DNA of 64,000 nt from a virus. Both the position numbers and the translations under genes were made by a program. The notes beneath the pieces are model-generated. The model made no database searches, was not told the DNA's origin, and was given only the letters and a program-made list of their open reading frames with translations. Shown one piece after another: positions 24,943 to 61,930 of this stretch. Each line of letters begins with the position of its first letter. The stretch's first letter is position 1. Location: the IMG/VR virus record IMGVR_UViG_3300034137_000024, positions 17,491-81,490 of that record, one strand, 5' to 3'.

Positions 24943-26243
24943 GCGGCCACCGTCAGGCCGTCATTGATCGTGGCCAAGCTGCTGGAAATGGTCGTAGTCG
25001 AGAGATCCGAGGTGACCAGGTCCACGTCGGCCAATGTTGACAGGGCGGCCGAAGCCTCCGGGGTAACAGTGATGCCGGTTGATGCGCTGGCCGTGATGTA
25101 CTCGAAGGTGTTGGAGGACGAGGCGGCATAGGCAGAAACTGAAGTACCGCCGTTGGTGCTCGAGCAGTTCGAGGCGCCATACACCGAGTCGTAGTCCTCG
25201 TAAGTCGCCGATGACACCTTGGCGTTCGCAAGCAGGCAATACAGGTTGGTGTATTCCCGGGCGACGCTGGATAAGGTGGCACTCGCGATATTCGGGATGC
25301 TGGCCACGAGGGACAGCGCGGTGAAGATATTGCAGGCCGCAGCCGTCGCCAGCTTCGCCACGGTAGCCACCGAGCTGATCAGGGCGACGCCGGTAGACAC
25401 CAAGGTCTTGACGGTCGTCAGCAGCTTGGAAGTGGCCGCAACGAACTTCTTGATAGGCGCGATGATCGTGCTATCCACCCACTGGTAGGCGGACACAAGC
25501 TTGGACGTGATTGCGCTGAGCGACGTCGACAGCGAGTCCAGCCAGGAGCTGGCGGTACTGGTGATGGTGCTGAACCAGCTGGAATTGTCGATCGTGGTCG
25601 ACGAGGTCAGCACCGAGCCGGTCAGGTCCTTGGAGAGCATGACGAAGCTAAACCGGTACATCGCCAGCAGCGGGCGACTTTTGCTGCGCTTGAGGTCGAA
25701 CACACGGGGGGCAATTTCGCGGCCGTAGTTGTTCAAGCTGTCCAACAGAAACAGCTTCACCTGGGTCGGATCGTCACCCCGAGCGATCGCCGCAGCGCGC
25801 TTGGAGTGCCAGCCGGAGTACACAAGCTGCTTGAAGTTGATCAGGCGCTCGATACCGCCGTTATCGGTCAGACTGGCCCGCCATCCGAGGGTGCCGGACA
25901 TGCTCCCCTCTTCAAGGCCCTCACCGAAAGAGTCCACCCAACCGCCGTTTAGGGTTTGGTTGACGGTCAACCGGCTGGGAAAGCCCACGGACAACTCCTC
26001 CGGCCGAATCTGGAGCGTCAACTCCTCGAAGGTTCCGCCGGACTCGTCGTCCAGGACAAAGGTGATGGGGCGAACGTCTGCCTTCTGCGAAACGGCAGAA
26101 CTCGAAGCACTCAAGCCAGCCAGGCTGGCAAGACTGCTGAAGCTGCTGAGGGCGCTACTCAGTCCCGTCGATACGCTGCTGACGGTGCTGGTTACGCTGC
26201 TGACGGTGCTGCTAACGTCGTCGCTAATAGTGCTTAGATCCAT
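24939..26243 (-). CDS. Ser/Thr-rich baseplate / tube-initiator-like protein
   Basis: IRPEEL....PSR..V.QTL.GGWVD.FG.G; ATG 26243. Confidence 0.65.
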   Translation of the reverse strand: MDLSTISDDVSSTVSSVTSTVSSVSTGLSSALSSFSSLASLAGLSASSSAVSQKADVRPITFVLDDESGGTFEELTLQIRPEELSVGFPSRLTVNQTLNGGWVDSFGEGLEEGSMSGTLGWRASLTDNGGIERLINFKQLVYSGWHSKRAAAIARGDDPTQVKLFLLDSLNNYGREIAPRVFDLKRSKSRPLLAMYRFSFVMLSKDLTGSVLTSSTTIDNSSWFSTITSTASSWLDSLSTSLSAITSKLVSAYQWVDSTIIAPIKKFVAATSKLLTTVKTLVSTGVALISSVATVAKLATAAACNIFTALSLVASIPNIASATLSSVAREYTNLYCLLANAKVSSATYEDYDSVYGASNCSSTNGGTSVSAYAASSSNTFEYITASASTGITVTPEASAALSTLADVDLVTSDLSTTTISSSLATINDGLTVAA

Positions 26244-26250
26244 GACGCCA

Positions 26251-26266
26251 AGCATGGCGTCACGAC
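26251..26266 (-). promoter_or_regulatory. Late-type promoter GTCGTGAC-GC-CATGCT (leaderless)
   Basis: ATG 7 nt after the hexamer. Confidence 0.75.
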
Positions 26267-26288
26267 GCTAGGCCCTCGTTGCCCTGCC

Positions 26289-31175: not shown

Positions 31176-31184
31176 GTGGTCAAC

Positions 31185-31457: not shown

Positions 31458-31473
31458 GCGGCCCGACAGGTCC

Positions 31474-34481: not shown

Positions 34482-35306
34482 TCAAATGTTGATCTCGCTC
34501 GTCACTTCGGTGATGGAGCCGAAGCGGCCAACCACGCGGGCCGGGGCGATGCAGGAAAAGGTCCCTACGGTCTGGTACATGGGCGCGTTGAACTCGCCGC
34601 TGACCGCATCAACGTCGGATTGGGAAAAACTGACTTGCTGGAGGCCGAGGCTGTTAAAAACGGCGAGGTTGGCGATCACCAGGCGGCGCAGCGCCTTGCG
34701 AAGCTCGATGCGCTCGTCTGAGTTGAGCGACCAGCCGATGACGCTGATTTGCACGTTGGCAATCCAGCCCTCGGTTTCGAGCCAGTCCTCACCCAGGAAG
34801 TCGTCACCCTGTATGTCCTCGCCGATACCACGCTCGCCCGGGGCTTCGTGCTCGAGCTGGACGGTAACGAGAGGGAACTTGATGCCGTGCTCGACTGACG
34901 GCGGGGCCGTGAAAACCTGTATGTAGCCGAGTTCTGGGGTGAAGTGACCCCGCGTAACTTCGGTCAACAGGCCGCGCTCCAGGCGATCGCGTAGAACAGC
35001 CACAGCGTCGGTGCTGTGGTCTTCGTAACCTGCAGTTGGAGTGCCCGAGGCGGTATCCCCGGCGACCCACGCGCCGCTGACGTAGTAATAGGGCTTGTAG
35101 AAAGCCATTACGTCGTTCAACAGGCTCTGGGCGTCTACGAATTTCTGGTCGGTGCCCAGGTACACACACACCGCACTCGCGTCATCGACACCGGTGAAGG
35201 TGTCCGCGCCTTTGCGCAGCACACGCCAGTAGCTCGCCCCTGTTGGGGGAGAGAGAAACAGTCGCAGGGCGTTGCCTGCTTGTAGGGGCCAGATGCTCGA
35301 AATCAT
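34482..35306 (-). CDS. Tail completion / neck-type protein
   Basis: Upstream of the sheath; own late-type promoter. Confidence 0.65.
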   Translation of the reverse strand: MISSIWPLQAGNALRLFLSPPTGASYWRVLRKGADTFTGVDDASAVCVYLGTDQKFVDAQSLLNDVMAFYKPYYYVSGAWVAGDTASGTPTAGYEDHSTDAVAVLRDRLERGLLTEVTRGHFTPELGYIQVFTAPPSVEHGIKFPLVTVQLEHEAPGERGIGEDIQGDDFLGEDWLETEGWIANVQISVIGWSLNSDERIELRKALRRLVIANLAVFNSLGLQQVSFSQSDVDAVSGEFNAPMYQTVGTFSCIAPARVVGRFGSITEVTSEINI

Positions 35307-35312
35307 GAGCCC

Positions 35313-35359
35313 ATCGTCGTGTCACGACGCTGGCGGCTGTTTCATCGTGACAAGAAGAT
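35313..35359. promoter_or_regulatory. Divergent pair of late-type promoters, both leaderless
   Basis: (-) GTCGTGAC-AC-GACGAT 35328-35313, ATG 35306; (+) ATCGTGAC-AA-GAAGAT 35344-35359, ATG 35366. Confidence 0.75.
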
Positions 35360-35365
35360 TTCGGC

Positions 35366-36214
35366 ATGAACGAACTACAAATCAGCACCAGTATCGATAT
35401 CGGCGGCCTGCTCGACCTACAGGGGATCATCAACAAGCAGGTGTTCCCCCTGCTAAACCAGGCAGTACGCGGCGTCGCCCAGCAAACCGCGTCCAACTGG
35501 CAGGAAAACGTCTACCAGGCCAAGCTCTGGAGCGGTGAAAAGAAGGCCTATGCCAAGTCCATCACCTGGGCGATGACGGGGGATTTCACTGCGCTGGTGC
35601 AGTCCGATTATCAGTACGACAGGGACATCGAGAGCGGCCGCCCGGCTCGGGACCTCAAGAAGATGCTGGACACCAGCAGCAAGGTGCGCCGGACAAAGGA
35701 CGGGCGCCGGTTCCTGATCATCCCGATGCGACACAGCGTGAAGAAACTGGAGGACGCTGGCCTGTACGGCATGGCCCAGTCGTTGGAGGCGTCCAAGGTC
35801 ACTGGGCAGGGGAAGCGCCAGAGCGGCGAGGTCACGCACATATCGCCAAATTCAGGCATGAGCAAGGCAGCGCACCAAACGCCCTACCTGTCGAACACCA
35901 AGACGAAGCAGGCCATGATGGTCAACCAGAACCAGTATGCATGGGGTGGGCACTTATCCCGGGCGGGCATGAAGGCCGCCGGCATAGACGCGGCAACACG
36001 CAAGTGGGCCGCCGGCATGCACCGGTTCGACACCAGCACCCCGGGGGGAGGCAAATCGAGCTCATACCTTTCATTTAGGGTCATGATGGAAAATAGCCAG
36101 GGCTGGATCGTGCCTGCACAGCCAGGCCAGTACATCGCGAAAAAGACCGCGCTGAACATGCAGATTCTTGCCCAAACGGTCTTTGCGGAGGCGGTCAAGC
36201 GCACCCTCAGCTAA
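35366..36214 (+). CDS. Putative neck / virion morphogenesis protein in inverted orientation
   Basis: 282 aa; ..IE.GRP..DLKK.L..S.KVR..K.G.RFLIIP. Confidence 0.7.
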   Translation: MNELQISTSIDIGGLLDLQGIINKQVFPLLNQAVRGVAQQTASNWQENVYQAKLWSGEKKAYAKSITWAMTGDFTALVQSDYQYDRDIESGRPARDLKKMLDTSSKVRRTKDGRRFLIIPMRHSVKKLEDAGLYGMAQSLEASKVTGQGKRQSGEVTHISPNSGMSKAAHQTPYLSNTKTKQAMMVNQNQYAWGGHLSRAGMKAAGIDAATRKWAAGMHRFDTSTPGGGKSSSYLSFRVMMENSQGWIVPAQPGQYIAKKTALNMQILAQTVFAEAVKRTLS

Positions 36215-41012: not shown

Positions 41013-41630
41013 TTAAATACGGGCCAGAACATCCGCCGGAATGGCGGTGCCGGACTGAATGGCGTTTTCTGCGCGAGCGACGTCGATGCCGCTGATCTTC
41101 CCGGCCTTCTGGGCGTCCAGGGCTTTAGCCAGAATCTCGGCCGGGGCCATCTGTGCGGGCTGGGATTTGCGCAAGGGCTGCTCGCCCGGGGCGGGCTTCT
41201 CGACGATTGCCAAGACGGTTTTGCGGCCGCGACCTTGGCCGGAGAGCTTCTCCAGCTGACCCTGCATCGATTTGAGAAGGGCGCCCTGCCCCTTGATGAG
41301 GTCGAGCATTGGGGTGATCGACTTAACCAGCATCTGGTCTTGGCCTTCGACGCGGTCGGCCAGTTCGTTGAGCGACTTAACCAGCTGCTCGGCATCGACC
41401 ACTTCGACGTTTTCGCCGTCGATGACCATGGATTTCTTGAGGTCAGCCGGGGCTACGCTTTCGTCGCCTTCGCCTTCACCCTTGCCTTTTGCGGCTGGGG
41501 CTTTCTCTTCTTCTTCCTCTTCTTCCTCGTCGTCGCCATCGCCGCCTTCGGCTGGCATGGATTTGGTGAGGGTGCTTTGTTCCGCTGCCAGGGCGTTAAT
41601 TTCGTCCAGCAGTTGGTCAAAATCGCTCAT
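41013..41630 (-). CDS. Capsid scaffolding protein
   Basis: Acidic helical protein with seven L-x-K-(S/A)-type motifs. Confidence 0.75.
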   Translation of the reverse strand: MSDFDQLLDEINALAAEQSTLTKSMPAEGGDGDDEEEEEEEEKAPAAKGKGEGEGDESVAPADLKKSMVIDGENVEVVDAEQLVKSLNELADRVEGQDQMLVKSITPMLDLIKGQGALLKSMQGQLEKLSGQGRGRKTVLAIVEKPAPGEQPLRKSQPAQMAPAEILAKALDAQKAGKISGIDVARAENAIQSGTAIPADVLARI

Positions 41631-42523
41631 TAAGAGCCTCGTTTCGTGAGTCTATTTTTCAAATCGCAAAGGAAGCGATTCACCCATTCAGTGGCCTCGT
41701 CTCCCGAGAGCCCGAATTGCTTGGTCGAATAGGCGATCAATCCCGCAGAGGTCTGAATCTTGGCGTCACGACCCCGCACGGCGGCCGACAGGCGATCGCG
41801 GAAGTCGAAGTAGGATTGAGGGATGCCGCCCATTGACTGAACGCGCAGGGCACTGCCGCCGGTGAGCGTTGCCGAGTCGGTGCCGTAACCGGCATCCAGC
41901 GACTTGAGGAACGCAAACCCGTTCGGGGTCCAGCTTTTCGCCAGCGCTCCGAAAGGAACGGTGGCAATACCGCTGACATGCTGGTTAACCGGCTGTTGAG
42001 AAATGCCGATGTTCGTCCAGCGGACCTTGCTGACAACGCCGATCTTCTGGCCAGTTTTGGGGTCCGTTTGAACCGATTTCGCCAGAACGGCACCACCTAC
42101 GCTGGGGTACCAGCGGCGTGGAGGGTTCAGCTGAGTCATCGACTCCCAAACTTGGTTTGCGCGCTCGGCCATAGGCGTGTCGCCCTTGTACAAGCGCGCT
42201 TTGACGAAGGTTGAGGCGCCCTTGACCACCACCTCATCGGGTACACCGATCTCCCAGAGCTCTGGTTGCGTGATGCCGTGGGCTTTAGCAACGGAGGGCA
42301 TCGACATATGGTTGATGTCAATGTTCCCGTAGCGAAGGAAGGTCTCGGCCGAGTCTTCAAGGGCCTTTGCCAGCACGATCTCGTCTTGCTGGTCACGGGC
42401 CTCGCGGGACGCTTCCAAGTAAATAAAGCGCTCGCCTTTCTCTTCACTGGGGCGCGCTTTGAACATGCCCTCAATGCTGAGGAAGTCGGGGATATGGGCC
42501 AGTAGGCTTTCGTCTTGATTCAT
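41630..42523 (-). CDS. Prohead protease
   Basis: AS.E.RDQQ.EIV, GNI..NH, SVGG; between portal and capsid genes. Confidence 0.82.
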   Translation of the reverse strand: MNQDESLLAHIPDFLSIEGMFKARPSEEKGERFIYLEASREARDQQDEIVLAKALEDSAETFLRYGNIDINHMSMPSVAKAHGITQPELWEIGVPDEVVVKGASTFVKARLYKGDTPMAERANQVWESMTQLNPPRRWYPSVGGAVLAKSVQTDPKTGQKIGVVSKVRWTNIGISQQPVNQHVSGIATVPFGALAKSWTPNGFAFLKSLDAGYGTDSATLTGGSALRVQSMGGIPQSYFDFRDRLSAAVRGRDAKIQTSAGLIAYSTKQFGLSGDEATEWVNRFLCDLKNRLTKRGS

Positions 42524-42530
42524 GGCGCCC

Positions 42531-42610
42531 AGTCTGTTGTCACGACTAGGGCACCGGCCCAGAGGGCTGCGGGGTGCAATTCACGGTTTGAGCGGTCGTG
42601 ACGCGAGGAT
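42531..42610. promoter_or_regulatory. Divergent pair of late-type promoters
   Basis: (-) GTCGTGAC-AA-CAGACT 42546-42531, ATG 7 nt later; (+) GTCGTGAC-GC-GAGGAT 42595-42610. Confidence 0.75.
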
Positions 42611-45615: not shown

Positions 45616-45652
45616 CAGGCAATTAGGCTGTCACGACCTGAGCCTGCGCCAT

Positions 45653-47350
45653 CTAAACCACGACCCGGAGCGCGGGCAAGCCGAAGGATTTCGCCAGAGC
45701 ATCGGCATCATCACCATCAACGACTGGGTCATCATCGGCGCTCTGGTCCTTGGCCTTGCTCACCTTGTCGACTGCCGCGTCAGCCGGTGGCGGTTGGTCC
45801 TGCTCGTCTCCACCAGGTGCGTCATCGGCGCCAGCCTGCATTTCGCCCTGGAACACGCCCATCAGTGACGGATTGAGCGGAGCCTCGCCCCAGCTGGCCT
45901 TTGTTTCGTCCCAGCCGTTGGCTTTGCGGCCTTCGTTGACCGAAAGCAGTTTCTGCTGCTTGTCCCAGACAACCTGCTCGTTGGCCTCGTCCAGACCGGT
46001 CCAGCGGAACACATAGTCGGGCGAGAAGTCCGCCACGATGAAGTCACTGAAAACGTCCTCGAAGTGCGCCAGCAGCGGCCGCAGGCCTTTGTCCTTGGAG
46101 TTGATCAGCTTCTCTTCGGTATCGCTGCCGCTGAGCGAGCTGGTTCCCGCCGTGAACGATTCAAAGTTGATCTCGTCCGGAGCCATGCCGTAGATCGCGC
46201 AGATGATCGACGTCAGAAACGTCATCCACTTGGCGAACATGATCTCGTTCACGTCAACGCCGAATTTCTCGAAGGCCGCCCGGGACTCTTGGTCCTTGGA
46301 CACCAGGACGGGCATCTGCCAGGAGTTGTTGACGCCTTTAACCATCGCGTTCCAGTAGCGCTTGAAGTTGTTCAAGTCGTTCTGGTCGTAATTGCCGTTG
46401 AGGTGCAGCAGGCCCTTTGGTATGGCGTTGCTGTCGAAATACTTGGTGTTGTAGGTGAAGGCGTTTAGATAGCCGGTGACGACCCGAATCAGCAGCTCGG
46501 TCTCCGACATGCCGTAGCCACCATAAACCACGTCCGTACGCGGATTGCGCGGCACGTAGATCATATCGTCATGGGTATAGGCGGTGCGGATCTGCCCATC
46601 AACCACCTGCAGGGCGAAAATCTCGTCGTCACCCTCATAACCGACCTCGCTGCACAGTCGAACGGTGGCCCCGTCGACGGCGTAGAACCCGTCCATGCCA
46701 CGGCGTTTGTCGCGCTTGAATTCGGTCTCGATTGGCGCACTGTCCATGATCAGGCTGTCGCGGCTGAGCTTCGCCATAAAGGTCGAGAAGTTGTCCCGCT
46801 TGAGCTTGAGACGTGCCCGGGGGTTCGATTCCCAGCCGCAGTTTGTAAAGAAGCCCTCCAGCAACTGGATCGCCTTGAGCTGATCGGCCCCCTGCGGCTT
46901 TGAGGAGTCTTTCTGGCGGATGGCGAAGCCTGGCCCCTTGCCGTTTTCCTGGACGCGGCAAAAGCGTTTTATCTGACGTTGACGGGTCAGGATCACCGAA
47001 CCGAGGATTGGAGTTTGATCGACCATGGTGCGCATGGTGTCGAAGGAAAATGCACTGGGCCGATCATAATAGTCACCCATGGCCTGGACACGATGGTCGT
47101 CCAGCCACACCGACTGCATGCCCGGCTCACCGCGCCGAACGGCGGGACTTGGGAATGGCGCCGCCTGGGGGCGCGTCAAGGATTTTTGAAACTCCTGCTC
47201 TTGATACTGCCGCTGGACGAATTCGACCAGGGGCAACATATCCGGGACCGAGGAAGGCATTGCCGACTGCTGAGCGACACGCATGGCGTCGTCTCGCTCG
47301 TCTTGCGGCGCTGCGGGGTTATGGGCGGTTTGGAGGGCAATGTCAGTCAT
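45653..47350 (-). CDS. Portal protein
   Basis: 565 aa; DG.TVR, YVPRNPR.D...YG.SE.E, N.IPKGLL, VNEGR. Confidence 0.9.
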   Translation of the reverse strand: MTDIALQTAHNPAAPQDERDDAMRVAQQSAMPSSVPDMLPLVEFVQRQYQEQEFQKSLTRPQAAPFPSPAVRRGEPGMQSVWLDDHRVQAMGDYYDRPSAFSFDTMRTMVDQTPILGSVILTRQRQIKRFCRVQENGKGPGFAIRQKDSSKPQGADQLKAIQLLEGFFTNCGWESNPRARLKLKRDNFSTFMAKLSRDSLIMDSAPIETEFKRDKRRGMDGFYAVDGATVRLCSEVGYEGDDEIFALQVVDGQIRTAYTHDDMIYVPRNPRTDVVYGGYGMSETELLIRVVTGYLNAFTYNTKYFDSNAIPKGLLHLNGNYDQNDLNNFKRYWNAMVKGVNNSWQMPVLVSKDQESRAAFEKFGVDVNEIMFAKWMTFLTSIICAIYGMAPDEINFESFTAGTSSLSGSDTEEKLINSKDKGLRPLLAHFEDVFSDFIVADFSPDYVFRWTGLDEANEQVVWDKQQKLLSVNEGRKANGWDETKASWGEAPLNPSLMGVFQGEMQAGADDAPGGDEQDQPPPADAAVDKVSKAKDQSADDDPVVDGDDADALAKSFGLPALRVVV

Positions 47351-47356
47351 GTGGTG

Positions 47357-47409
47357 AGCATGGCGTCACGACGCCCCCGGTACGGCCCCGGCCGTCGTGA
47401 CGACAGGCT
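47357..47409. promoter_or_regulatory. Divergent pair of late-type promoters (portal / dUTPase)
   Basis: (-) GTCGTGAC-GC-CATGCT 47372-47357, ATG 6 nt later; (+) GTCGTGAC-GA-CAGGCT 47394-47409. Confidence 0.75.
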
Positions 47410-48106: not shown

Positions 48107-48122
48107 GTCGTGACCGCAAAGT
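48107..48122 (+). promoter_or_regulatory. Late-type promoter GTCGTGAC-CG-CAAAGT facing non-coding DNA
   Basis: Consensus match right after the dut stop codon. Confidence 0.6.
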
Positions 48123-48864: not shown

Positions 48865-49122
48865 ATGAACGAAAAAAGCATGGCGCGTTTTTTAGGCTTG
48901 GCCCCAAAAGCACAACCTACCGCCGTTACACGCGGGCTCGTTGTTGTTATGTCAGTACGCAAGGGTGGTGTCGGCCCGATTCTGCGATACACCCACCCTA
49001 CCAACACCATCAGCCGCCTCGAGGCGCAAATCGAGGCTCAGCAGGCAGCCAGAAGGGAAGGCCTGACGTTCTGGACCCTCCTCGACATCTCTCCACCTGA
49101 TCAAGTTGCCGTCGCGATGTAA
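48865..49122 (+). CDS. Hypothetical protein
   Basis: SD AGGAAAGGA before MNEKSMARF; AT-rich upstream region. Confidence 0.6.
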   Translation: MNEKSMARFLGLAPKAQPTAVTRGLVVVMSVRKGGVGPILRYTHPTNTISRLEAQIEAQQAARREGLTFWTLLDISPPDQVAVAM

Positions 49123-51710
49123 GCCCAACAACCGGGATCTTTTGGCCTCACCGTTGCTTGTAACTCGCGGCAACGGTTGGTAACTGGGTCCCGGTTACTG
49201 CAAGTTCCGCACGTATTCGCCAACGCATACTCGATCTGAGCAACCACAGTTGAAGCTTGGATAGGCAACGCCGCCCTGACCCCCTCCGCAGCAACTCCCT
49301 GCTGATTCGCCGACTCCGGCAAGATAAATGTACTGGTCCCGTGTGCGCGTGAATACGCGACGTCACAGAGCATGTTTGCATAGCTGGTATGAGGGTCAAT
49401 GCCGATCTTGACCACGCGGCGGGTGTATTTCTTCTCTTCCTCATCCTTCTCGGCAATCAGCGCGGTGCGGGTGAAGTGCAAAAACGCCACTTCACGACAC
49501 GCTGCCTTGACCACCATTTCGCCTTTCTCGAAATAGTCCTGCACCAGGGCATCAGGATCCGGGAACAGACACTGGGTCAACTGAATACGCGACATCGCCG
49601 ACTGCATGCACTTGTACTGGTCCAGGCGCACGGTATAGCGAGTCCGGCCATCTTCGGTGGTCCGGCGTTCGGAGGCGTTCAGGCGCGCTGTATCGCCCCA
49701 AATCATCATCTGACCGTCCATGTTGCCGTAGCCGGCCAAGAACACACGCCCCTCATGGCGCTGCGCGAAACGCTGGGCGTCGTTGTAGTTTGGTAGGGCC
49801 TCCACCACGCAGCACTGCACGTTGAAGGCATCCATAAGCTCGGAGGTCCGCGCAAATGGGTCGTTGTTGAAAATGTACTCCAGGTGGACCACAGCCTGAC
49901 GTCCGTCCGGCAAGCGCTTTTTGATGATGGCAACCACGTAGTTACCACCCTGGTCGAGCCCCATGAACGTCTCGCGGTCCGACTTACGCCACAGCAGACC
50001 GTAAGCCATGCCCACGCGGGCACATTCGTTGAGCATCGCCAGATTGACCGGAGTCTGCGACGGGTCGGTGTAGGGCTTGCCGAGCTTCCGGTTATAGAAG
50101 TTCTTCATATCGTCGGCTTCGCGGTACGCCTCGATAATCTCTCGCGGTGAGATCGTCGGCGACAGGAACTGCGGGAAGTGAACCGAGACAATTGCGGCCT
50201 CGGGTACCTTTGCCAGCCATTCACCGGCCTGGGGATCGTCGATCCAGCCCGAACAGACGTGGCAGCGGTACCGATATTCGCCATACGTGGTGGGTATGCC
50301 GTCGCGTTGAACGCGCTGCGGTGCTTCTGGGTCAAAACCAATGCATTGAGGGAAGTGCTCGTCCAGCACCTGACCGGTTTCACAGTGCGGGCAGCGCGTA
50401 TGGAACTGGTGCTGGGTGCCCTTCTTGTACCACCAGTGAATATCGGAATCGGGCCAGTTGGCCGTCGAACCCATGAGCGTGTAACGGATCCGTGAAGCGG
50501 ACAGACGCTCGCGGGTTTTTTCCATATCCGCGATGGTCATTTCCTGCACTTCGTCGAACGACAGAACGTCCATCGGGAACGATTCGGTCGCCGTCTTACC
50601 TGTGGTCCACAGGAAGTGAAACCGAGAAGAACCGAGGTTTCGGATAAGGACGTTACCCTCCCCGCCCTTGGTGCCGCTGGCATTCTTGTCGACCATCATC
50701 CGATACACCTCGGGAATGGTCTTGATGATCGGCATAAAGCGGTGCGTGGACTTGCCGCTGGCCAGCATCTGCGACGGCATGAACATGCCAACCTTGGCCG
50801 GCGCGAATTTGATCGACAGATAGATCATCGCCAGGCATTCGAGCACCGAGAAACCTACCTGGGTGCATTTCATCACCACATGCGTCGTCAGATAGGCCTG
50901 TTTCGGGTCCGATGGGATCAAGCTGTAAATGAACCGCATCGCAGGCCGATCGGAGAGTGTGAACCGTACCCCGTCGACCTTGAGCCCGTCCTTTTCCAGG
51001 CGTTCGCACCACTCCACAAACGACTCGTTTAGCCCGATAAAACGCTGCAAGGGGTCGAGTTCAAAGGCCAACTCCAGGAATTCGGCGTTAAAACGCTGCC
51101 GCCACTCGAATTCCGTGATGCTTTCGGCCTCCTCCGCGCTTTTTCGCGGAAAAAATGGGTTCTCGTAGGCGCTATGGTGCGAGCAACGCCAAGACGGGTC
51201 CTCCAGACCACGCTCGTACAGGCGATAGAAATCGTTTCGCTTGCCGTAGGCATTGGAAAGGAACCAGACCTGACCCTTGTGCGTACGCAGCGACTCGCTA
51301 AGCAGGTCCTCCCACAGATGCAGGAAGTCCGGCACCCGGCAAACGTCGTCGACCACCACCAGGCCGAACTGGTCCAGGGTGTTGATCTTCTCGTCAAGGG
51401 AATAGAAATAGATGCTGTTGCCGTTCTGCAGCTCGACCTGGTGACCGCTGACACGACGGCGTACAAACGAGTCGATCGCACGGATCACGGTGCGTTTTAC
51501 CGCAAGCATTTCCTCACGGGTCGCCGAAAACCAAGCAACAGGCGCCATGCCGGCGATCGCGCCATGCGGAGACGCAACCAGCGCCTCGATGCCGAGTGTT
51601 GTTTTGCCACCCTGCTCGCCTATGCACACGGCATTAAACCGAGCAGCGTTAGACAGGATGCGTTCTTGAACAGGGAAAGGTGCTGGGAGGCGTATTTTTA
51701 ATGGGCTCAT
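49101..51710 (-). CDS. Terminase large subunit (gpA-like) with an extra degenerate N-terminal terminase ATPase domain
   Basis: Domain 1: Q..I...ARF, GEQGGKT, VVVDD; domain 2: MKCTQVGFS, FDEVQEM, GST; CPHC zinc finger; nuclease GLDQG. Confidence 0.9.
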   Translation of the reverse strand: MSPLKIRLPAPFPVQERILSNAARFNAVCIGEQGGKTTLGIEALVASPHGAIAGMAPVAWFSATREEMLAVKRTVIRAIDSFVRRRVSGHQVELQNGNSIYFYSLDEKINTLDQFGLVVVDDVCRVPDFLHLWEDLLSESLRTHKGQVWFLSNAYGKRNDFYRLYERGLEDPSWRCSHHSAYENPFFPRKSAEEAESITEFEWRQRFNAEFLELAFELDPLQRFIGLNESFVEWCERLEKDGLKVDGVRFTLSDRPAMRFIYSLIPSDPKQAYLTTHVVMKCTQVGFSVLECLAMIYLSIKFAPAKVGMFMPSQMLASGKSTHRFMPIIKTIPEVYRMMVDKNASGTKGGEGNVLIRNLGSSRFHFLWTTGKTATESFPMDVLSFDEVQEMTIADMEKTRERLSASRIRYTLMGSTANWPDSDIHWWYKKGTQHQFHTRCPHCETGQVLDEHFPQCIGFDPEAPQRVQRDGIPTTYGEYRYRCHVCSGWIDDPQAGEWLAKVPEAAIVSVHFPQFLSPTISPREIIEAYREADDMKNFYNRKLGKPYTDPSQTPVNLAMLNECARVGMAYGLLWRKSDRETFMGLDQGGNYVVAIIKKRLPDGRQAVVHLEYIFNNDPFARTSELMDAFNVQCCVVEALPNYNDAQRFAQRHEGRVFLAGYGNMDGQMMIWGDTARLNASERRTTEDGRTRYTVRLDQYKCMQSAMSRIQLTQCLFPDPDALVQDYFEKGEMVVKAACREVAFLHFTRTALIAEKDEEEKKYTRRVVKIGIDPHTSYANMLCDVAYSRAHGTSTFILPESANQQGVAAEGVRAALPIQASTVVAQIEYALANTCGTCSNRDPVTNRCRELQATVRPKDPGCWAYIATAT

Positions 51711-51716
51711 AGCCCG

Positions 51717-51732
51717 AGCTTGAAGTCACGAC
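51717..51732 (-). promoter_or_regulatory. Late-type promoter GTCGTGAC-TT-CAAGCT (leaderless terminase)
   Basis: ATG 6 nt after the hexamer, no SD. Confidence 0.78.
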
Positions 51733-53650: not shown

Positions 53651-54841
53651 CTATGAGGAATCACTGCCAGGATCAAAGTCCCCTAAAGGCAAGGGCACCC
53701 CCGGTGGGGCAGGTACCTGATGTACACCATAAGGAACATCGGGAGCAGCGACGGCGGAGCGCCCCTTAAACGCGATCACAGCGGCGAATTTCTCGACCTC
53801 TTCGATGATGTGGCGGTGAGCAGCCACGGTCTGCCGTGCAAGGCCCGCCATGCGCGCTATAGCGACGCTGGTGAGCTCTTGGCCCCGCTGCTGCAATAGA
53901 CGGCAAGCGGCCCTCACCTTCGATTCTGTGGCTTGATGGCGCAGGTCGTGGGTGCGCTTGGCTGACATGCGCTGACGCTCGGCCAGTGGCAGGCTGGAAT
54001 CCAGCGCCATGGCGCCACGGTGGACGCGAGAACTGCCGTAATACTTGCTCCACGTCCAGTTCGCCACGGACTTGACCGTCGCACGCAGCGAGGACTCAGG
54101 CAGGTTCGTAGACATGCCCCACTTGGCGAAACCGTTGTTGTTGTGCGCGAACGCACGCAGCAGCGCCAGAAACGAGGAAAAACACCCCGCTTCGCGCTGC
54201 CGGTTAACGATGCTGTATGCGTAATAGCGCAGCTGCTCGAACATCAAGCAGTGCCGGGAGTGACTGACCTCGACCAGAGAGCGGCGGACTGCCCACGGCT
54301 TCGTCGTCTCAAGTTCGACGTATTCAGCCAGGTCGCCGAGATCGTAGACGTGGTCGTGCAGATCCATCGTCGCCCACCACGGATGGCCGGGCGTCTTGGC
54401 GACAGGGCCGCTGTGGTATTCGAGATCCGCGTCCAGCACCAGGGCAAACGCCTGATACACGGCTTTCATGTAGTTGATGGGCGCGTGGCGAGCGTTGTCC
54501 GACGTGCAGACGGGGGCAATGGCGTAGTAGAGGTGGCAATGGCCGTTGTTGCGGTTGCGCACGATCATGTTGGGCGCAGGCAGGCCCTTCTCTTCCCATA
54601 TCAGGGAGTTCGCATGATCGAGGTCGAAGACCAGCCACGACGTCATCCCCGGGCGGTTAACCTGCATATAGGGGTAGTTGACGGCGTACTCCCGCGGACG
54701 AATCCGGGTTGCCGTCTTGTCATCGCTGCAGCGGGCAAGATACGAGGCTTCCTCAAGAACACGGCTCAGGGCCGATCCTTTCAGGTAGTAACGCTCGCCC
54801 GCAGGCTGGACCTTTTCGAGTTTTTTCGGCTTTACCGACAT
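53651..54841 (-). CDS. repA: Plasmid replicase RepA (ColE2/pPT23A type)
   Basis: YMQVNRPG..SWLVFDLDH, LP.PN..VRNR..GH.HL.YAI, KTPGHP.W, C-terminal HTH. Confidence 0.92.
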   Translation of the reverse strand: MSVKPKKLEKVQPAGERYYLKGSALSRVLEEASYLARCSDDKTATRIRPREYAVNYPYMQVNRPGMTSWLVFDLDHANSLIWEEKGLPAPNMIVRNRNNGHCHLYYAIAPVCTSDNARHAPINYMKAVYQAFALVLDADLEYHSGPVAKTPGHPWWATMDLHDHVYDLGDLAEYVELETTKPWAVRRSLVEVSHSRHCLMFEQLRYYAYSIVNRQREAGCFSSFLALLRAFAHNNNGFAKWGMSTNLPESSLRATVKSVANWTWSKYYGSSRVHRGAMALDSSLPLAERQRMSAKRTHDLRHQATESKVRAACRLLQQRGQELTSVAIARMAGLARQTVAAHRHIIEEVEKFAAVIAFKGRSAVAAPDVPYGVHQVPAPPGVPLPLGDFDPGSDSS

Positions 54842-54845
54842 ACCC

Positions 54846-54864
54846 TGCCGCCAAAACGGCGGCA
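54846..54864 (-). promoter_or_regulatory. Hairpin in the repA leader
   Basis: TGCCGCC-aaaac-GGCGGCA, 4 nt before the ATG. Confidence 0.5.
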
Positions 54865-55012
54865 AGCAGACGGACGGACGCAAAAAATAATGCGCCCACA
54901 CTTGCACACGGATGCGCAGGTATCCATAATCTCACCTAGCTGTTACGTGAGCACTACAACGGTTTTCCGCCAAGAAATCTGACGTTGAGTGCTCATTTTT
55001 TTTGCCCCGAGT

Positions 55013-55711: not shown

Positions 55712-55839
55712 AGATAGAGGTGGCGTTCTTTAGGGTAACCGGGCGTGGTTACCCGGCGTTTCTGTCCAGCAGGAAGGGGTAGGCGCGCAGGATGCGCGGG
55801 ACAATACAAGAGACTGTATGTCCCGGCAAACCGCAAGGG

Positions 55840-56070: not shown

Positions 56071-56080
56071 CTGCGCCCCC

Positions 56081-56428
56081 TTAAAGTGGCAAGCCACGCT
56101 GACGGGGGCTTGCGTACGGCGGCACCGGCTGCAGGTCGGCCATGATGTGCCAGACGCGGCCGTAAGCGGTGGCCAGCTTCTTGTCGCCAACAGAGTTTTT
56201 GAAGTTGGGGTAGTTGATCGCCATAGCGAGGTCGGCCAGCTTGGCACCTACTACCGCCTTGGGCAGAACCGCACGGAACTGGTAGTCGTTACCGATGGTT
56301 TCCCGCACGTCAGCGTCAGGGAAAACATTGCGGATGTCTTTCGGGCGGCGGCTGCGCACCAGGAGCTCGTCCGGGCCACAGTCCTTGTTCACGATCGAAA
56401 GGAAAGCGTTGTTGGTGCAGATCCACAT
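56081..56428 (-). CDS. Conserved hypothetical protein
   Basis: MWI..N.AFLSIV, LLVR.R, DY.FRA, Y.NFK.SV; SD AGGAG; operator-like box upstream. Confidence 0.8.
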   Translation of the reverse strand: MWICTNNAFLSIVNKDCGPDELLVRSRRPKDIRNVFPDADVRETIGNDYQFRAVLPKAVVGAKLADLAMAINYPNFKNSVGDKKLATAYGRVWHIMADLQPVPPYASPRQRGLPL

Positions 56429-56499
56429 AGGGGCATCTCCTGTTGAGTTGCCCCTATATTACTCAAATTTGATTAATCATCTAGTGGTTTCTAAGTTAA

Positions 56500-57306
56500 T
56501 CAGTCAAATAAATCAGAATGCTCATTGCCCCACTTCGACTTTTGCGTCGGTGCCTTCTTCGGTGGTTCCGGCGCCGGGCCAGCGCCGATCACTTCGGCGA
56601 TACCGTGATCCGACCACATATTGAGGTGGTCATAGAGTTTGTCCTTTGGAACAAGGTGGACCGCCTGCGACTCCCAGCCCATTGCTGTGGGGGTTCCGCC
56701 GATCCGCTGCGCACGGTAGATGCGCGCTTTCGACATGGTGCGCTCGAAGTCGCCGAGAAAACCGGTAATCCGAACCTTCAAACCGCTCTCTTCAAACGCC
56801 TCCTTGACCGCGTTGGCCTGCAGTGAAAGGCCCTCCTCGGCCGTGCCTTTCGGGAAGCTGGCCTCGTAGCCGCCGAACTGGTTGGACGGCGCAATGAGCC
56901 AGACACGACCGTCCGGCTCCTCGATCACCACACCACTGGCGGCGTACTTCTTGCTCCCCTGGACGAATGGGGGCTCGTCCAGGTCATCGTCAACGCCGTC
57001 GACATAGTCCCAGCCGTCCGCCGTTACAGGATGGTCCTTCCATTCGCGGAACGGGATGCCATTCAGGCCTAACGGCACGTCACCGTCAGGCACGAACGTG
57101 GCGACAGCCTGGGGGTTATGCCATGTGCTCGCCGCGCTCGCATTGGAAGGTGCGTGCAACTTGACCGGCGCGCCCTTGTCATCGAACTGCGGGTGGAAGT
57201 GGTGAGCCGGCGCCGCAGCAGACTGCACCTTGGTGTTGTACGGCTTCACGTAGGTGCCGTCTGCACGGGCGTGGCCTTTGACGTAGGCCTTGGCGAGATC
57301 GGTCAT
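56500..57306 (-). CDS. Nudix hydrolase, probably capsid-packaged
   Basis: Nudix box PKGTAEEGLSLQANAVKEAFEESGL; N-terminal DLAKA-YVKGHARADGTYVKPY. Confidence 0.88.
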   Translation of the reverse strand: MTDLAKAYVKGHARADGTYVKPYNTKVQSAAAPAHHFHPQFDDKGAPVKLHAPSNASAASTWHNPQAVATFVPDGDVPLGLNGIPFREWKDHPVTADGWDYVDGVDDDLDEPPFVQGSKKYAASGVVIEEPDGRVWLIAPSNQFGGYEASFPKGTAEEGLSLQANAVKEAFEESGLKVRITGFLGDFERTMSKARIYRAQRIGGTPTAMGWESQAVHLVPKDKLYDHLNMWSDHGIAEVIGAGPAPEPPKKAPTQKSKWGNEHSDLFD

Positions 57307-57788
57307 CGTTGTGCCCCAGGCTTGCGACCCAGCAGCACGTCAACAGCATCGTCTACGACTTCAGTCAGGCCGGCCTGCACCTCTTCCTCAGTCATCGCCC
57401 CCTCTTCGAGGTTGATCGAGGCCTCCAGCGCCTGCAGCGCTAGGAAATTGAAATAGGCCTCGGCCGGCGTCGCGTAGTCGGCGACATCCGGCGTCGTTAC
57501 GCGCAGGTAAATGCCCAGGCGGTGCGGGCTGTTCCAAGGCTGGGCGGCATAGCTGCTGTTTTCACCCATGACGATCTGTGCGTTTCGGGCGCACATAGCC
57601 GCGATCCGGGCCGATGAGGCATCGCCATCGCCGTCCTGGTGGAACTTGGCGCGCTCGGTGAACACTGCGCCCAGGAACTCGCGCACCAGGTGGTTTATCA
57701 CCTGGGGGTCGCCCAGGTAGTTATTGGTTTCGATGCCGTCTACGGCGGTCTGGAGGCCGTCGCGGCGGTTTGCTTCAAGATTGTCCAT
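57303..57788 (-). CDS. Acidic hypothetical protein (candidate immunity/partner protein)
   Basis: Overlaps both the kinase-ART gene and the Nudix gene. Confidence 0.65.
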   Translation of the reverse strand: MDNLEANRRDGLQTAVDGIETNNYLGDPQVINHLVREFLGAVFTERAKFHQDGDGDASSARIAAMCARNAQIVMGENSSYAAQPWNSPHRLGIYLRVTTPDVADYATPAEAYFNFLALQALEASINLEEGAMTEEEVQAGLTEVVDDAVDVLLGRKPGAQR

Positions 57789-60700
57789 GTTTCCCCTTGT
57801 TCGCTTCCAGTTCGGAAACGTAGGTCTCGTCGGGTGGCAGCATCAGCACGTCGAGTTCAATTCGTTCCTTACCTTTGTGCGGGTCGAAGACCTTCTGGCA
57901 GGACATAATAACGAACCGCTGCCCGGGCAAGGTTGTGATCTCTTTTTCACTGCTGAAAGACCCCGAACCAAAGCTATCAACGGCCTTTGCCCCCTTCGCG
58001 TAACGAATCCGGATCCGGTCAGCCCCGAAACCCGAGGTGCCATTAGGGACGTACGAGCAGCACATCGAGCCGGGGTTTTGAAACACCGTGCCAGGCTGAG
58101 CCTTGAGCATCTGCTGCTTCATATCCCCCGAGAAGTTGATCCACTTATAAATCTCGAAGCCTTCGGGTTTTTCGGTAGCGAACGAATAAGCATCGAGGAC
58201 CATGCCGGTCGCGTCCCGCCCATCGCTTGTGACCATTAAACCATCACGGAAATTGTCGTTGTAGGACCCTGACGACTGAATCCCATTAATAAATCGCTTT
58301 ACCAGGCGATTCGACGCCAGGCCCGCATAAGCCAGCTTTGCAGACGACCGCATGGCCTCCGTTAACGACGGTGTGCCGACAGGGCTGCTTTGGAAGGCCA
58401 AGGTCTTGCTACCGCCTGCAGGAAGCAGCGCGACCGCCGGTTTGGTGTGGCCCAGGGCGATCCAGAACGCCAAGCGGGAGTTGGCGTGTACCTTGTTGAT
58501 GGTGACGCCGTATTTCGCGCTCTGGAAGGCGTCTGAAACCTTCTTGAGGCCGACAGCCATCACCGATTTAAACGCTTTCAGGCGCTCCGGCGGGTGCGCA
58601 ATGTAGTTCAGCGTCGACACCAAGTCCGACCAATACGCCTTTACATGCTGCGACGGGTGCTGCTCGATATGCTGGCTGCCCGCCGCCTCCCCTGTTTCCT
58701 TGTCCACGGCGTCAAAGTGATAGTCCTTCAAGGCAATCAAGTTGCCTTTGGACGCGAACGCCAATAGATCCTGCTCGGCCTTGAGGTTGGTCTCGTTGAC
58801 GTGCGGTTTCGACGACAGGCCGTTACCGGCACCTTTCCAGTTGTGGAAGTCGTGCGGTTGCGGCAGGTCGCTTGCCTTTACGTCGAGCTTGGTCGGGTCT
58901 GGCTTCGGCTTGGCCTTGGATGCTGCGGCCTTTTTGACAGCCTTGGGGAACTGTTCGAGCAAATTCTCTTTGCGAGCAATCAGCGTCTCCACCAGGTGCG
59001 CTTTTTTCGCCAGGTCACCGGGGCCGTGCTTCATCACCAGGTCGTAAATCTCGTCGTCAGACACCGCGACGACCTTAGCCACCGATGCGGTAATGTCGGC
59101 CTTCGTCAGCTTGCCGAAGACCACCGAGGCCGCATGGTTGATTTTCGGGTCGCGCATGGTGTCGATTTCGGTCACTTGGTTTCCGAAAGCCTTCTTACCG
59201 CCCATGGCGCGATATTCAAGGGCGCCGCCGGCGTCCACGCGCACGGCCTTGCCATTGGCATCCAGCTGCAGGTTGTCGTATTCCAGGCCAACCGCGTCCC
59301 AGTTACCCAACCAGGCGTCGACAGCGAAACCAGCGCTGGTACCGTCTGCCTTTGCCATTTCAGCCGGCGGTGCCTTGGTCACCTCCTCCCATTTGCTGGC
59401 AATACCGATCTGCCCGTTATGGGTAACCAACTTGCAGTTCTGTCCAGTTACCCCTGCTGCAGCGTACAGCTGGGCCGCCAGAACTTCGGACTTGGCCATG
59501 TCCTCGTCCTTGGGAAATTTGCAGTACCAAGCCACGCCATCGGGGTCGACATACTTGCCGCCGGGATTCGAGCCGAGCTGACCGCCGACCTTCGACCAGG
59601 CATCCATCGATGGCGGCTTATCCCCCGCTGGAGCAGCTGGCGCCGTTGGTGCAGCAGCCTTGCCCTTGCCCTTCGGCACAGGACCTACGGCAGCCTTTAG
59701 CGCCTCAACATAGTGATACAGGGCGACGTGCGACCCCTCGGGCATGCTGAGGAAGCCGGTAATTTTTACCGATCCGCCCCCCGGCCTCGGCAAGGTGACA
59801 ATCGTCTTACCTGATTTCTTCATCACCTTTGTGGTGCCGACAAGCGCAGCTGGGCCTTCGGCCTTGACCTTTTGCAGCAGCGTGTGGATGCAGCCAGCGA
59901 CCACCTCGGGCTTTTTGAAATCCGTCAGATGCGGCAACGGCACCTGGGCGACCGCATACATGGCCGCTTCGTGGGGATTATCGACGCCAGGAACCTTGTG
60001 CCAATGGCCGTCTTTGAAAACGAGCATTCCATCGGCGCCCTGTTTCATTTCACCCTCAAGCGGCCCGGCAGGATCCGGTGAAGCTGATGCAGGTTTTTCC
60101 GGTGCAGGGGTGGCGGCAGGGGCAGCAGGGGCAGCGGCCGGGCTTTCTTTCAACGCGGCGATTGCGGCGGCGGCGATCTTCGCCTGCTTCTTTCCGTACG
60201 TGTTGCTGCCAAACTTCATCGCCTCGAGGCCGGCCACGTCGCCGGCGTAAGCCAACGCCTTGATCTTCTCGAGCTTGCCGTTATGGCTCTTGGCGTTGGT
60301 GTTGCTCTCGGGCAGTAGCAGGCCATCCCAAGGCATTTTGTCGAGGTTTACGTGAGAGGGTGACTGGCCGGAACTGGCGGTAACCTTCTCCGGTTCCACA
60401 GCGTTCGGGGCGGGCTCCGGCGCCTTGGCGACAGGCGCCGGGGAGGGCGCAAGCGCCGGAGGTGGGGCGAACTTTTGCGGGTCGAGCTCGGAAAGGGCCT
60501 GCTGCGCGTAGACCTGCGCAGCCGGGGAGTACGTCATGCCATCCACTTCTTTGCCGCTGGCAATGTCATGGATCGAATCGGTCTGGAGCTCCGCGTAGTA
60601 ATGGTTGATGGCGTCCTTTTCGGCCTCCATGGCGTCGCCCGGATCCACGTCGCCGAAGTGCTTGGCGGCCGGGTTCATCGCCGCAACCTTGGCCGGATCG

Positions 60701-61908
60701 TGCGGCAGGTGATCCTCATGACCCCACGCGGCGTAAATCTGGTGGATTGCCGCCTGATGCAGGGCAATCAGCTTTTTCGAGTTCGCCGTCTTCCCCGCCC
60801 AGGTCTGCCCCTTGAGCTTGTGTCCGTCTGCCTTGAGGTCTTCCAGGGATACAGCATCCTGATCATGCGCCAAGTCCAGTATCTGCTGGGCTACCTTCTC
60901 GTAATGAGATTTGACCCCGGTGGTGGTTTTCCCCTCGGCGAAGTCGGGCATTTTCAGGGCGCCGGCAGCCGCAGAACTTTCGGTAACTGCCGGTGGTTCC
61001 CCCGCGTTACCGCTGGAGTTAGCCGCGGATATCTTTGAGGCGACCAAAGCGGCGTGGTGAACCGGAGTGCCTTCGGCGTAGGTGTTGAGGAAGTAGTTAA
61101 ACGCCTCTTTATCACCGTCCTCGATCGCTTCGTCCAGAGCGGCCTGTATCTGGGGCGTCATGTGGCCAACGCTGGTCCCGCCGGTTTTCGACTCGCGGGC
61201 TGAATCGGACGCGGCCACGTCTGCAGGCTTAGCCTCGGCGCCGGGCATTGATGCCAACTGACCGGCCTTCGCCTGTTTCACCGCGTCGAAGTCAGCAGTG
61301 CTGGCGAACTTGGAGAGGTAAATCTGCCCGTACATTTGGGCTGCCGACACGCTGGCCGAGTTCTTGATCTTGTCCAGGAGTTCCAGCGCTTCCGGGTTAG
61401 AACTGGCGGTAACTGCGGGCGGTTCCTTCTGGTTGCCGGCAGGGGAGGCCTTTACAGCGGCGTGTTCGCCAGGCTTTTGCCCGGCCGATACCTGGTGCTG
61501 GCTGCCCATTTTACCCAAGAGGAAGTTAGCCACTGCTGCCTGTTTCTTGCCGTGGGTATTCACGCCGTAGCCGTGACCAAGGATGGCCGTGGCGTCGCCG
61601 TTTTCGCCATGGGCGAGCAGCTTGGGCAAATGAACGTCGTTGAAGGCTGCCATTTCCTTGTTGGTGGCGGCCTTGTCCGTGGGGTACTTGAGCTTGTCGA
61701 TCTGTTCGGCCGACAAGGATATAGGGCTGTGCTTACCACCCGCCTCGGGGTGCGCTGCTTGGGGTGCGCCTTTGGGTGCCGGTTTCTCCTGCTTGATAGC
61801 GTGCCATCTACCCTGCAATAGGTAATAGCCCGCTTGGTGGGCAATTTTTGACTTGATCAGCAACAGAACTCGGGGAGCCGCTGCCGTGGGGGCGGTAGGT
61901 ATATTCAT
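57775..61908 (-). CDS. Polyvalent protein: linker-rich N-terminus, HipA/PI3K-like kinase, C-terminal ADP-ribosyltransferase
   Basis: GSNPGG..WYCK, SEVLA, DAWLGNWD, RVDAG; IYKW, SMCCS, SEKE, LPGQRF. Confidence 0.8.
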   Translation of the reverse strand: MNIPTAPTAAAPRVLLLIKSKIAHQAGYYLLQGRWHAIKQEKPAPKGAPQAAHPEAGGKHSPISLSAEQIDKLKYPTDKAATNKEMAAFNDVHLPKLLAHGENGDATAILGHGYGVNTHGKKQAAVANFLLGKMGSQHQVSAGQKPGEHAAVKASPAGNQKEPPAVTASSNPEALELLDKIKNSASVSAAQMYGQIYLSKFASTADFDAVKQAKAGQLASMPGAEAKPADVAASDSARESKTGGTSVGHMTPQIQAALDEAIEDGDKEAFNYFLNTYAEGTPVHHAALVASKISAANSSGNAGEPPAVTESSAAAGALKMPDFAEGKTTTGVKSHYEKVAQQILDLAHDQDAVSLEDLKADGHKLKGQTWAGKTANSKKLIALHQAAIHQIYAAWGHEDHLPHDPAKVAAMNPAAKHFGDVDPGDAMEAEKDAINHYYAELQTDSIHDIASGKEVDGMTYSPAAQVYAQQALSELDPQKFAPPPALAPSPAPVAKAPEPAPNAVEPEKVTASSGQSPSHVNLDKMPWDGLLLPESNTNAKSHNGKLEKIKALAYAGDVAGLEAMKFGSNTYGKKQAKIAAAAIAALKESPAAAPAAPAATPAPEKPASASPDPAGPLEGEMKQGADGMLVFKDGHWHKVPGVDNPHEAAMYAVAQVPLPHLTDFKKPEVVAGCIHTLLQKVKAEGPAALVGTTKVMKKSGKTIVTLPRPGGGSVKITGFLSMPEGSHVALYHYVEALKAAVGPVPKGKGKAAAPTAPAAPAGDKPPSMDAWSKVGGQLGSNPGGKYVDPDGVAWYCKFPKDEDMAKSEVLAAQLYAAAGVTGQNCKLVTHNGQIGIASKWEEVTKAPPAEMAKADGTSAGFAVDAWLGNWDAVGLEYDNLQLDANGKAVRVDAGGALEYRAMGGKKAFGNQVTEIDTMRDPKINHAASVVFGKLTKADITASVAKVVAVSDDEIYDLVMKHGPGDLAKKAHLVETLIARKENLLEQFPKAVKKAAASKAKPKPDPTKLDVKASDLPQPHDFHNWKGAGNGLSSKPHVNETNLKAEQDLLAFASKGNLIALKDYHFDAVDKETGEAAGSQHIEQHPSQHVKAYWSDLVSTLNYIAHPPERLKAFKSVMAVGLKKVSDAFQSAKYGVTINKVHANSRLAFWIALGHTKPAVALLPAGGSKTLAFQSSPVGTPSLTEAMRSSAKLAYAGLASNRLVKRFINGIQSSGSYNDNFRDGLMVTSDGRDATGMVLDAYSFATEKPEGFEIYKWINFSGDMKQQMLKAQPGTVFQNPGSMCCSYVPNGTSGFGADRIRIRYAKGAKAVDSFGSGSFSSEKEITTLPGQRFVIMSCQKVFDPHKGKERIELDVLMLPPDETYVSELEANKGKHGQS

Positions 61909-61914
61909 GACGCG

Positions 61915-61930
61915 ATTCTTGCGTCACGAC
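61915..61930 (-). promoter_or_regulatory. Late-type promoter GTCGTGAC-GC-AAGAAT (leaderless)
   Basis: ATG 6 nt after the hexamer. Confidence 0.78.

Follow-up and report, generated by a model that had tools for sequence, protein, structure and literature searches.

The stretch of DNA analysed here (the window, 64,000 nucleotides) comprises bases 17491–81490 of the 84,651-bp IMG/VR virus record IMGVR_UViG_3300034137_000024 (CheckV completeness 92%) and has a G+C content of about 60%. The element is a temperate myovirus of roughly 85 kb: tail sheath, major head protein, head protease, portal and large terminase (TerL, 869 residues) were identified among the virion genes, and integrase, antirepressor, primase, helicase, SSB and exonuclease among those for replication and lysogeny. 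The phage family to which we assign it consists of Bordetella phage PHB04, Pseudomonas phage Dolphis, Aeromonas phage ST4 and IMG/VR relatives, and eight full genomes were compared: the present one, ST4, Dolphis, PHB04 and four IMG/VR records of 88–98 kb. At seven places in the window the ATG of a gene stands only 6 or 7 nucleotides (nt) downstream of a bipartite sequence motif, in an arrangement that would leave the corresponding mRNAs without a 5' leader.

The seven hexamer-spacer-ATG strings reported for this DNA in the original prediction were all found exactly as written (Table 1). The hexamers are preceded, with a gap of 2 nt, by the box GTCGTGAC, which takes the variant form ATCGTGAC at 35344, so that the bipartite motif reads GTCGTGAC-N2-NANNNT and is followed by a spacer of 6 nt (N6) or 7 nt (N7) and the ATG. 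A scan allowing up to two mismatches in the box returned the same seven, which are the full set of box-hexamer-N6/7-ATG arrangements in the genome. The 59-nt intergenic gap 35307–35365 between the divergent genes for the 274- and 282-residue proteins consists of two back-to-back predicted promoters plus the 15 nt between them, so there is no room for a leader or another promoter for either gene. The predicted promoter of the gene resembling a tail-tube initiator (the tail initiator below) fills a 45-nt gap after the stop codon of the upstream co-directional gene.

Table 1. Predicted promoters, starts and genes discussed in the text, with their occurrence in relatives. Positions are those of the window unless stated otherwise, with the strand in brackets; aa, amino acids; ORF, open reading frame; SD, Shine-Dalgarno site.
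Feature	Position (strand)	Details	Occurrence in relatives
TerL, predicted promoter and start	51708..51732 (-)	box 51732-51725, hexamer CAAGCT 51722-51717, 6-nt spacer, ATG 51710	6/6 genomes (ST4 with box variant GTCGTGAG); 5/9 IMG/VR loci with readable upstream DNA
TerL gene	49101-51710 (-)	869 aa	
Portal, predicted promoter and start	47348..47372 (-)	box 47372-47365, hexamer CATGCT 47362-47357, 6-nt spacer, ATG 47350	8/8 genomes; ~43 of ~50 IMG/VR loci with upstream DNA (box, hexamer, N6/7, ATG)
Portal gene	45653-47350 (-)	565 aa	
Head maturation protease, predicted promoter and start	42521..42546 (-)	box 42546-42539, hexamer CAGACT 42536-42531, 7-nt spacer, ATG 42523	N6/7 in 7/8 full genomes; IMG/VR homologues (57-63% identity): box and hexamer 7/7, ATG at N6/7 in 6/7 and at N9 in 1/7
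Protease gene	41630-42523 (-)	297 aa	
1377-aa protein, predicted promoter and start	61906..61930 (-)	box 61930-61923, hexamer AAGAAT 61920-61915, 6-nt spacer, ATG 61908	leaderless type in 5/6 orthologues; ST4 with 31-nt leader
1377-aa protein gene	57775-61908 (-)	1377 aa	
274-aa conserved virion-module gene, predicted promoter and start	35304..35328 (-)	box 35328-35321, hexamer GACGAT 35318-35313, 6-nt spacer, ATG 35306	N6/7 in 8/8 genomes
274-aa gene	34482-35306 (-)	274 aa	
282-aa conserved gene (phrog_16819), predicted divergent promoter and start	35344..35368 (+)	box variant ATCGTGAC 35344-35351, hexamer GAAGAT 35354-35359, 6-nt spacer, ATG 35366	8/8 genomes, six with one- or two-letter box variant
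282-aa gene	35366-36214 (+)	282 aa	
Tail-tube-initiator-like gene, predicted promoter and start	26241..26266 (-)	box 26266-26259, hexamer CATGCT 26256-26251, 7-nt spacer, ATG 26243	leaderless-type orthologues: PHB04, motif at 4739, N6, 385-aa ORF; Dolphis, motif at 23667, N6, 395-aa ORF
Tail-tube-initiator-like gene	24939-26243 (-)	434 aa	
Predicted promoter of the same class, with leader	22046..22085 (-)	box and hexamer CAGACT, 23-nt leader, 16-nt palindromic hairpin, GGAGG SD, ATG 22046	
ZnA gene	L009:10790-11329 (-)	genome coordinates, upstream of the window; 179 aa	
ZnB gene	L009:10362-10790 (-)	genome coordinates, upstream of the window; 142 aa	

There are 17 copies of the pattern TCGTGACNNNANNNT in the window, whereas shuffled sequences contain 0.33 ± 0.55, and 20 copies of the box by itself, against 2.7 expected. 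The A at the second and the T at the last position of the hexamer are both present behind 17 of these 20 boxes; this count is unbiased, and the invariance of the same two bases in all 128 copies collected from the eight family genomes follows from the construction of the search pattern. The whole genome contains 20 strict copies, and 12 related genomes contain 3 to 24 copies each, with reversed-pattern controls giving 0–1; the counts in relatives were obtained by pattern search with a strict C-ending box in some genomes and a C or T ending in others. A conserved -35 element was looked for upstream of the 20 genome copies, and nothing conserved was found further upstream. The motif does not form an extended -10 element either, as the TG of the box falls at -18/-17 rather than -15/-14 and positions -14/-13 are variable. 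The region from 26 to 46 kb is poor in canonical sigma-70 promoters (one found versus 5.0 expected), and a scan for leaderless starts behind ordinary TANNNT hexamers gave nothing above chance. Intrinsic terminators lie directly upstream of many motif copies, and divergent pairs of copies occupy whole intergenic gaps. Among the papers that could be searched, none describes the motif, or transcription in the PHB04/Dolphis/Mecenats66 group.

Repeating the spacing analysis in related phages had been proposed along with the original prediction, and the N6/N7 spacing is kept in the eight family genomes. Counting only an ATG that opens an ORF of at least 60 residues, such a codon stands at +6 in 41 of the 128 motif copies and at +7 in 12 (53 of the 128 together), with one further case at +9, and none of the copies has one at +3–5, 8, 10 or 11. 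The background chance of an ORF-opening ATG 6–7 nt after a random position is 0.0103; 7 of 17 copies have one in the window (p = 2e-10), and the 53 of 128 over the eight genomes give a binomial p = 8e-70, a value inflated by shared ancestry. The arrangement is maintained gene by gene at 37–77% protein identity although the letters of the spacer differ, and it is on this conservation, more than on the p-value, that the argument relies. That of TerL is common to Dolphis, ST4, the relatives G001, G002 and G003 and several IMG/VR loci, some of them with the box variant GTCGTGAG. Among the orthologues of the 282-residue protein, five keep the hexamer-N6-ATG arrangement behind GCGTGAC, ST4 has it behind TAGTGAT, and G003 has TCGTGAC with N7. 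Protein conservation begins at residue 1–3 in the portal (M-T-D, conserved from residue 1), TerL, the protease and the 274-residue protein (M-I-S...GNALR, likewise from residue 1), which indicates that these ATGs are the true starts.

The bases around the ATG also carry features expected of a transcription start. On the assumption that the hexamer is a -10 element of the sigma-70 type, at -12 to -7, +1 would be the seventh base behind it. At -1, 38 of the 42 N6 sites have C (p = 1e-15) and every one of the 12 N7 sites has a pyrimidine, which matches the preference of bacterial RNA polymerase for a pyrimidine at -1 and a purine at +1. Where no ATG stands at this distance (74 motif copies), position 7 is still A in 31 (42%), as compared to 7–16% A at positions 1–6, so there is a signal for +1 that is independent of start codons. 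The proposal that +1 coincides with the A of the ATG passed the sequence tests that were run (family-wide conservation of the 6- or 7-nt spacing, C at -1, starts limited to ATG, weak structure and the A at position 7), and it is from sequence alone that the assignment has been made.

The absence of a Shine-Dalgarno (SD) site was borne out at all seven starts by duplex energies with the anti-SD sequence, which range from -2.6 to +0.6 kcal/mol, compared with a median of -2.4 for random positions and -5.05 for the other genes. The genes for major capsid protein (MCP), sheath and tube carry clear GGAG/GAGG sites in this genome. Across the family, the start-like codons that open ORFs of at least 60 residues at the N6/N7 offsets (n = 55) are 53 ATG, one TTG, one CTG and no GTG. 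In E. coli and Caulobacter, leaderless initiation is efficient only with AUG (PMC9031893), and the near-exclusive use of ATG matches this requirement. The predicted mRNAs (n = 53) fold weakly over their first 36 nt, with a mean energy of -3.9 kcal/mol; windows inside the same genes that begin with an ATG average -8.7 (p = 1e-20), and 255 starts with an SD site average -5.9.

We consider leaderless transcription to be the best reading of the seven sites and a likely one. The motif would be a promoter specific to this phage family and lacking a -35 element, in which the hexamer keeps the two bases that sigma-70-type polymerases flip out, A at -11 and T at -7, and the box at -22 to -15 would be read by a separate factor, probably phage-encoded. 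Transcription would begin at the seventh, sometimes the eighth, base after the hexamer, which at seven promoters is the A of the ATG. The mRNAs of the TerL, portal, protease, tail initiator, 274-residue, 282-residue and 1377-residue genes would then have neither a 5' leader nor an SD site and would be translated by direct binding of ribosomes to the 5'-terminal AUG, with the later genes of each operon using ordinary SD sites.

Several points weigh against this reading. The start at the A is predicted from promoter geometry; at N7 sites it could fall one base before the A, and if the reader of the box is not a holoenzyme of the sigma-70 type it could lie elsewhere. The first base of the hexamer is mostly C or G and not the T preferred by sigma-70. 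Sites in related genomes are orthologous and hence not independent, which affects the statistics. The tail initiator gene could also be translated from read-through transcripts. Finally, Pseudomonas, Bordetella and Aeromonas, the known hosts of relatives, use SD sites and usually translate leaderless mRNAs poorly, and dependence of essential genes on the leaderless route in such hosts is unexpected.

If the motif is a promoter, the start might nevertheless be placed differently: the box could be the melting element of a phage or extracytoplasmic function (ECF)-like sigma factor, with transcription beginning inside the hexamer and producing SD-less leaders of about 8–15 nt. GTC-containing -10 elements are typical of ECF sigma factors, which together with the missing first-position T and the fact that no sigma was found that reads the box gives this explanation some appeal. 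We regard it as unlikely, because it accounts neither for the hexamer A and T in 17 of 20 box copies and the exact 6- or 7-nt spacing nor for the C at -1 and the A at position 7 in copies with leaders. Moreover, a search of this genome, ST4, Dolphis and PHB04 for sigma region 2 (PF04542, Sigma70_r2) gave no match at E ≤ 1, although 11 of 14 control genomes were matched; a very divergent sigma could have been missed.

It is less probable again that the motif is not a promoter and acts on RNA, as a site of binding or of cleavage on longer transcripts that controls translation or yields processed 5' ends beside the ATG, or that it is an operator at which a repressor would cover the starts. In favour of this are its constant placement on the coding strand, its position next to starts in 41% of the copies, and the location of the tail initiator copy between two co-directional genes; the remaining 59% of family copies, however, are 20–45 nt or more from the next start or have no ORF ahead of them. 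With many copies placed directly after terminators and divergent pairs filling their gaps, the genes concerned would be left with no other promoter, and the A/T pattern of the hexamer and the C(-1)/A(+1) step are signatures of a polymerase. The ATGs themselves might not be true starts, with translation beginning at a downstream codon that has a leader and the adjacency to the motif a by-product of compact intergenic regions. Such a reading could draw on the 1377-residue protein, whose Atlas copy begins at residue 16, a TTG, 15 codons late. There is no SD site ahead of this TTG, and the automatic gene call appears to have skipped the leaderless ATG; the conservation of four of the proteins from their first residues and the family-wide adherence to the 6- or 7-nt spacing and to ATG make this explanation highly improbable.

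Leaderless late transcripts have precedents outside this family. Thermus phages Lalka27a and YS40 use phage-specific late promoters without a -35 element, with a class-specific -10 TAGGGT and a conserved upstream base; late transcription starts 6 nt after the hexamer, most of the transcripts are leaderless and have the first base of the start codon as their 5' end, and a phage factor has been proposed to retarget the host polymerase (bioRxiv 10.64898/2026.04.20.719267). Leaderless late transcripts from phage-specific, -10-proximal promoters are already demonstrated in these phages. The geometry here is the same, with the start predicted from sequence. The two groups are unrelated and share neither sequence nor phage genes, and the present motif differs in its 8-bp box at -22 to -15, in a hexamer that begins with C or G, and in that only about 41% of its copies are of the leaderless type. 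Furthermore, leaderless mRNAs are in routine use in Thermus hosts, but the known hosts of this family are Proteobacteria that rely on SD sites.

The late promoters of phage P1 depend on Lpa, with the host protein SspA as co-activator, and consist of a '-22 box' and a -10 element. They resemble the present motif in having a box around -22 upstream of the -10 and no -35, and in occurring in many copies before operons for morphogenesis, packaging and lysis. The P1 record annotates the late-promoter boxes, and LPpac reads ATGTGACTT-N4-TACCCT. However, the P1 box has the form of a 9-bp inverted repeat (AAGTTACTT, ATGTGACTT), unlike GTCGTGAC, the gap between box and hexamer is 4–9 nt in P1 rather than a fixed 2 nt, and P1 late mRNAs have leaders, that of LPpac being about 35 nt long with an SD site. 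A tblastn search of the eight family genomes found no homologue of Lpa (best E-value 0.44). The differing sequence and symmetry of the box, the leaders and the lack of Lpa speak against a P1 Lpa-type promoter.

To our knowledge, the known leaderless case among phages of Proteobacteria is lambda cI, which when transcribed from PRM starts at the A of its AUG, has no SD site and is the first gene of its transcript (mechanism reviewed in PMC9031893). The predicted start at the A of the ATG and the lack of an SD site are the same here, but cI is a single lysogeny gene behind an ordinary sigma-70 promoter, in contrast to a design repeated for late structural and packaging genes. Phage T4 also has a class of late promoters made up of the -10 region only (TATAAATA), at which the polymerase is phage-directed, by gp55 with gp33 and gp45. 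Their sequence differs from that of the present motif, there is no upstream box, the late mRNAs have leaders, and no match to sigma region 2 was found in the four genomes of the present family that were searched.

The original prediction extended leaderless translation to the first gene of each operon, which proved too broad. Only seven of the 20 strict motif copies in the genome are of the leaderless type, and the others have leaders of roughly 20–45 nt, some with a normal SD site; the leaderless design is a feature of particular genes and not of every operon. The copy upstream of the ATG at 22046 (Table 1) indicates that the box works independently of a start codon, which is what one expects of a promoter. 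The leaderless type comprises the genes of TerL, portal, protease and tail initiator, and MCP, sheath and tube come from internal, SD-led genes. The low-copy nature of the former would fit a role in stoichiometry, and the purpose of the design is probably a low, fixed output of proteins needed in few copies. The resistance to translational shut-off by the phage's own ADP-ribosyltransferase or toxin, raised in the original prediction, finds no support in these observations.

Several other settings of the motif were observed. Strong hairpins, some with a terminator-like T-run, come straight after promoters of the led class, ahead of the start codon, at 22047–22085 (-), at ST4 3896, at Dolphis 28082 and at PHB04 90388, and may be 5' stabilisers, attenuators or operators. 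A full copy at 41757–41772 (-) lies within the protease gene, towards its 3' end and some 120 nt ahead of the scaffold start at 41630, and may be an internal promoter that lifts scaffold and MCP transcripts above those of the protease. Two further sites face stretches without an ORF of at least 45 residues, namely a motif copy at 48107–48122 (+) and a box with an imperfect hexamer at 45622–45637 (-) (box 45630–45637); late non-coding RNAs are possible at both.

As to what reads the box, candidates come from the proteins shared by the family. Two adjacent Cys-rich proteins, ZnA and ZnB, were present in all eight genomes in a comparison of all ORFs. ZnA has eight invariant cysteines (C17, C29, C48, C51, C74, C77, C90 and C93) and a search with its alignment recovered it in four of five additional relatives; a distant, incomplete relative that lacks it contains a single, chance-level copy of the motif. 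None of the 62 homologues of ZnA carries a name; many come from contigs about 90 kb long, and a Pseudomonas phage has one. Neither protein has a Pfam or PHROG match, and the model of ZnA (predicted local distance difference test, pLDDT, 85) has no PDB neighbour (Foldseek E > 1, best VIA Z 2.6). In the seven relatives inspected, the 400 nt preceding ZnA contain no copy of the motif. Also universal in the family is an 85-residue helix-turn-helix protein encoded at 11326–11583 (-), upstream of the helicase gene; its model (pLDDT 74) gave no significant PDB match and three homologues were retrieved. A motif copy at 11450–11465 falls inside its coding sequence, where it spells Cys-Arg-Asp codons, and is probably coincidental. 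ZnA, ZnB and the helix-turn-helix protein are candidates only for late activators or readers of the box.

A wider proposal, to which we give somewhat less than an even chance, is that a lineage of roughly 90-kb phages of SD-using Proteobacteria runs a dedicated leaderless programme for low-copy assembly proteins. It would be wired to a new type of promoter made up of the box at -22 to -15 and the -10 element, with the box read by a family-specific protein of unassigned fold, possibly the ZnA/ZnB pair, and leaderless initiation would either fix a low output or uncouple these genes from translational control by the host. In Proteobacteria and their phages, leaderless mRNAs are regarded as rare exceptions, lambda cI being the textbook case. 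If the interpretation is right, they would be a conserved design principle for the terminase, portal and protease genes of a widespread phage family, a compact 16-bp promoter would be defined, and the cultured members in Pseudomonas, Bordetella and Aeromonas would offer a tractable system for the use and efficiency of a 5'-terminal AUG. There is a consequence for annotation as well, since gene callers that favour SD sites can misplace such starts, as in the database copy of the 1377-residue protein.

Some features of the genes and of the element as a whole were noted in passing. A search of public sequencing runs for this DNA matched only one biocrust metagenome (DNA), probably the sample of origin, and no RNA run was listed. 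TerL has an extra N-terminal region resembling Terminase_6N (residues 10–224) ahead of a gpA-type terminase (229–794); its homologues in PHB04 and the relative G005 align only from about residue 200, the N-terminal part being absent or separately encoded. The 1377-residue protein is a possible effector of the ADP-ribosyltransferase type. Among its feature neighbours are clusters that contain ADP-ribosyltransferase and NUDIX domains, and a NUDIX protein is encoded two genes downstream of it (56500–57306). A 340-residue ORF at 12811–13833 (-), initially taken for a universal protein, is the shadow of a + strand gene at 12646–13848, as relatives score 281–384 bits in the + frame versus 105–182 in the - frame. 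The product of this gene, which has no Pfam match, is putatively RecT-like, solely on account of its position after the exonuclease gene. Finally, a plasmid-type Replicase/PriCT_1 protein (53651–54907, -) and an integrase (15213–16379, +) occur in one element, which by these genes may be a phage-plasmid.

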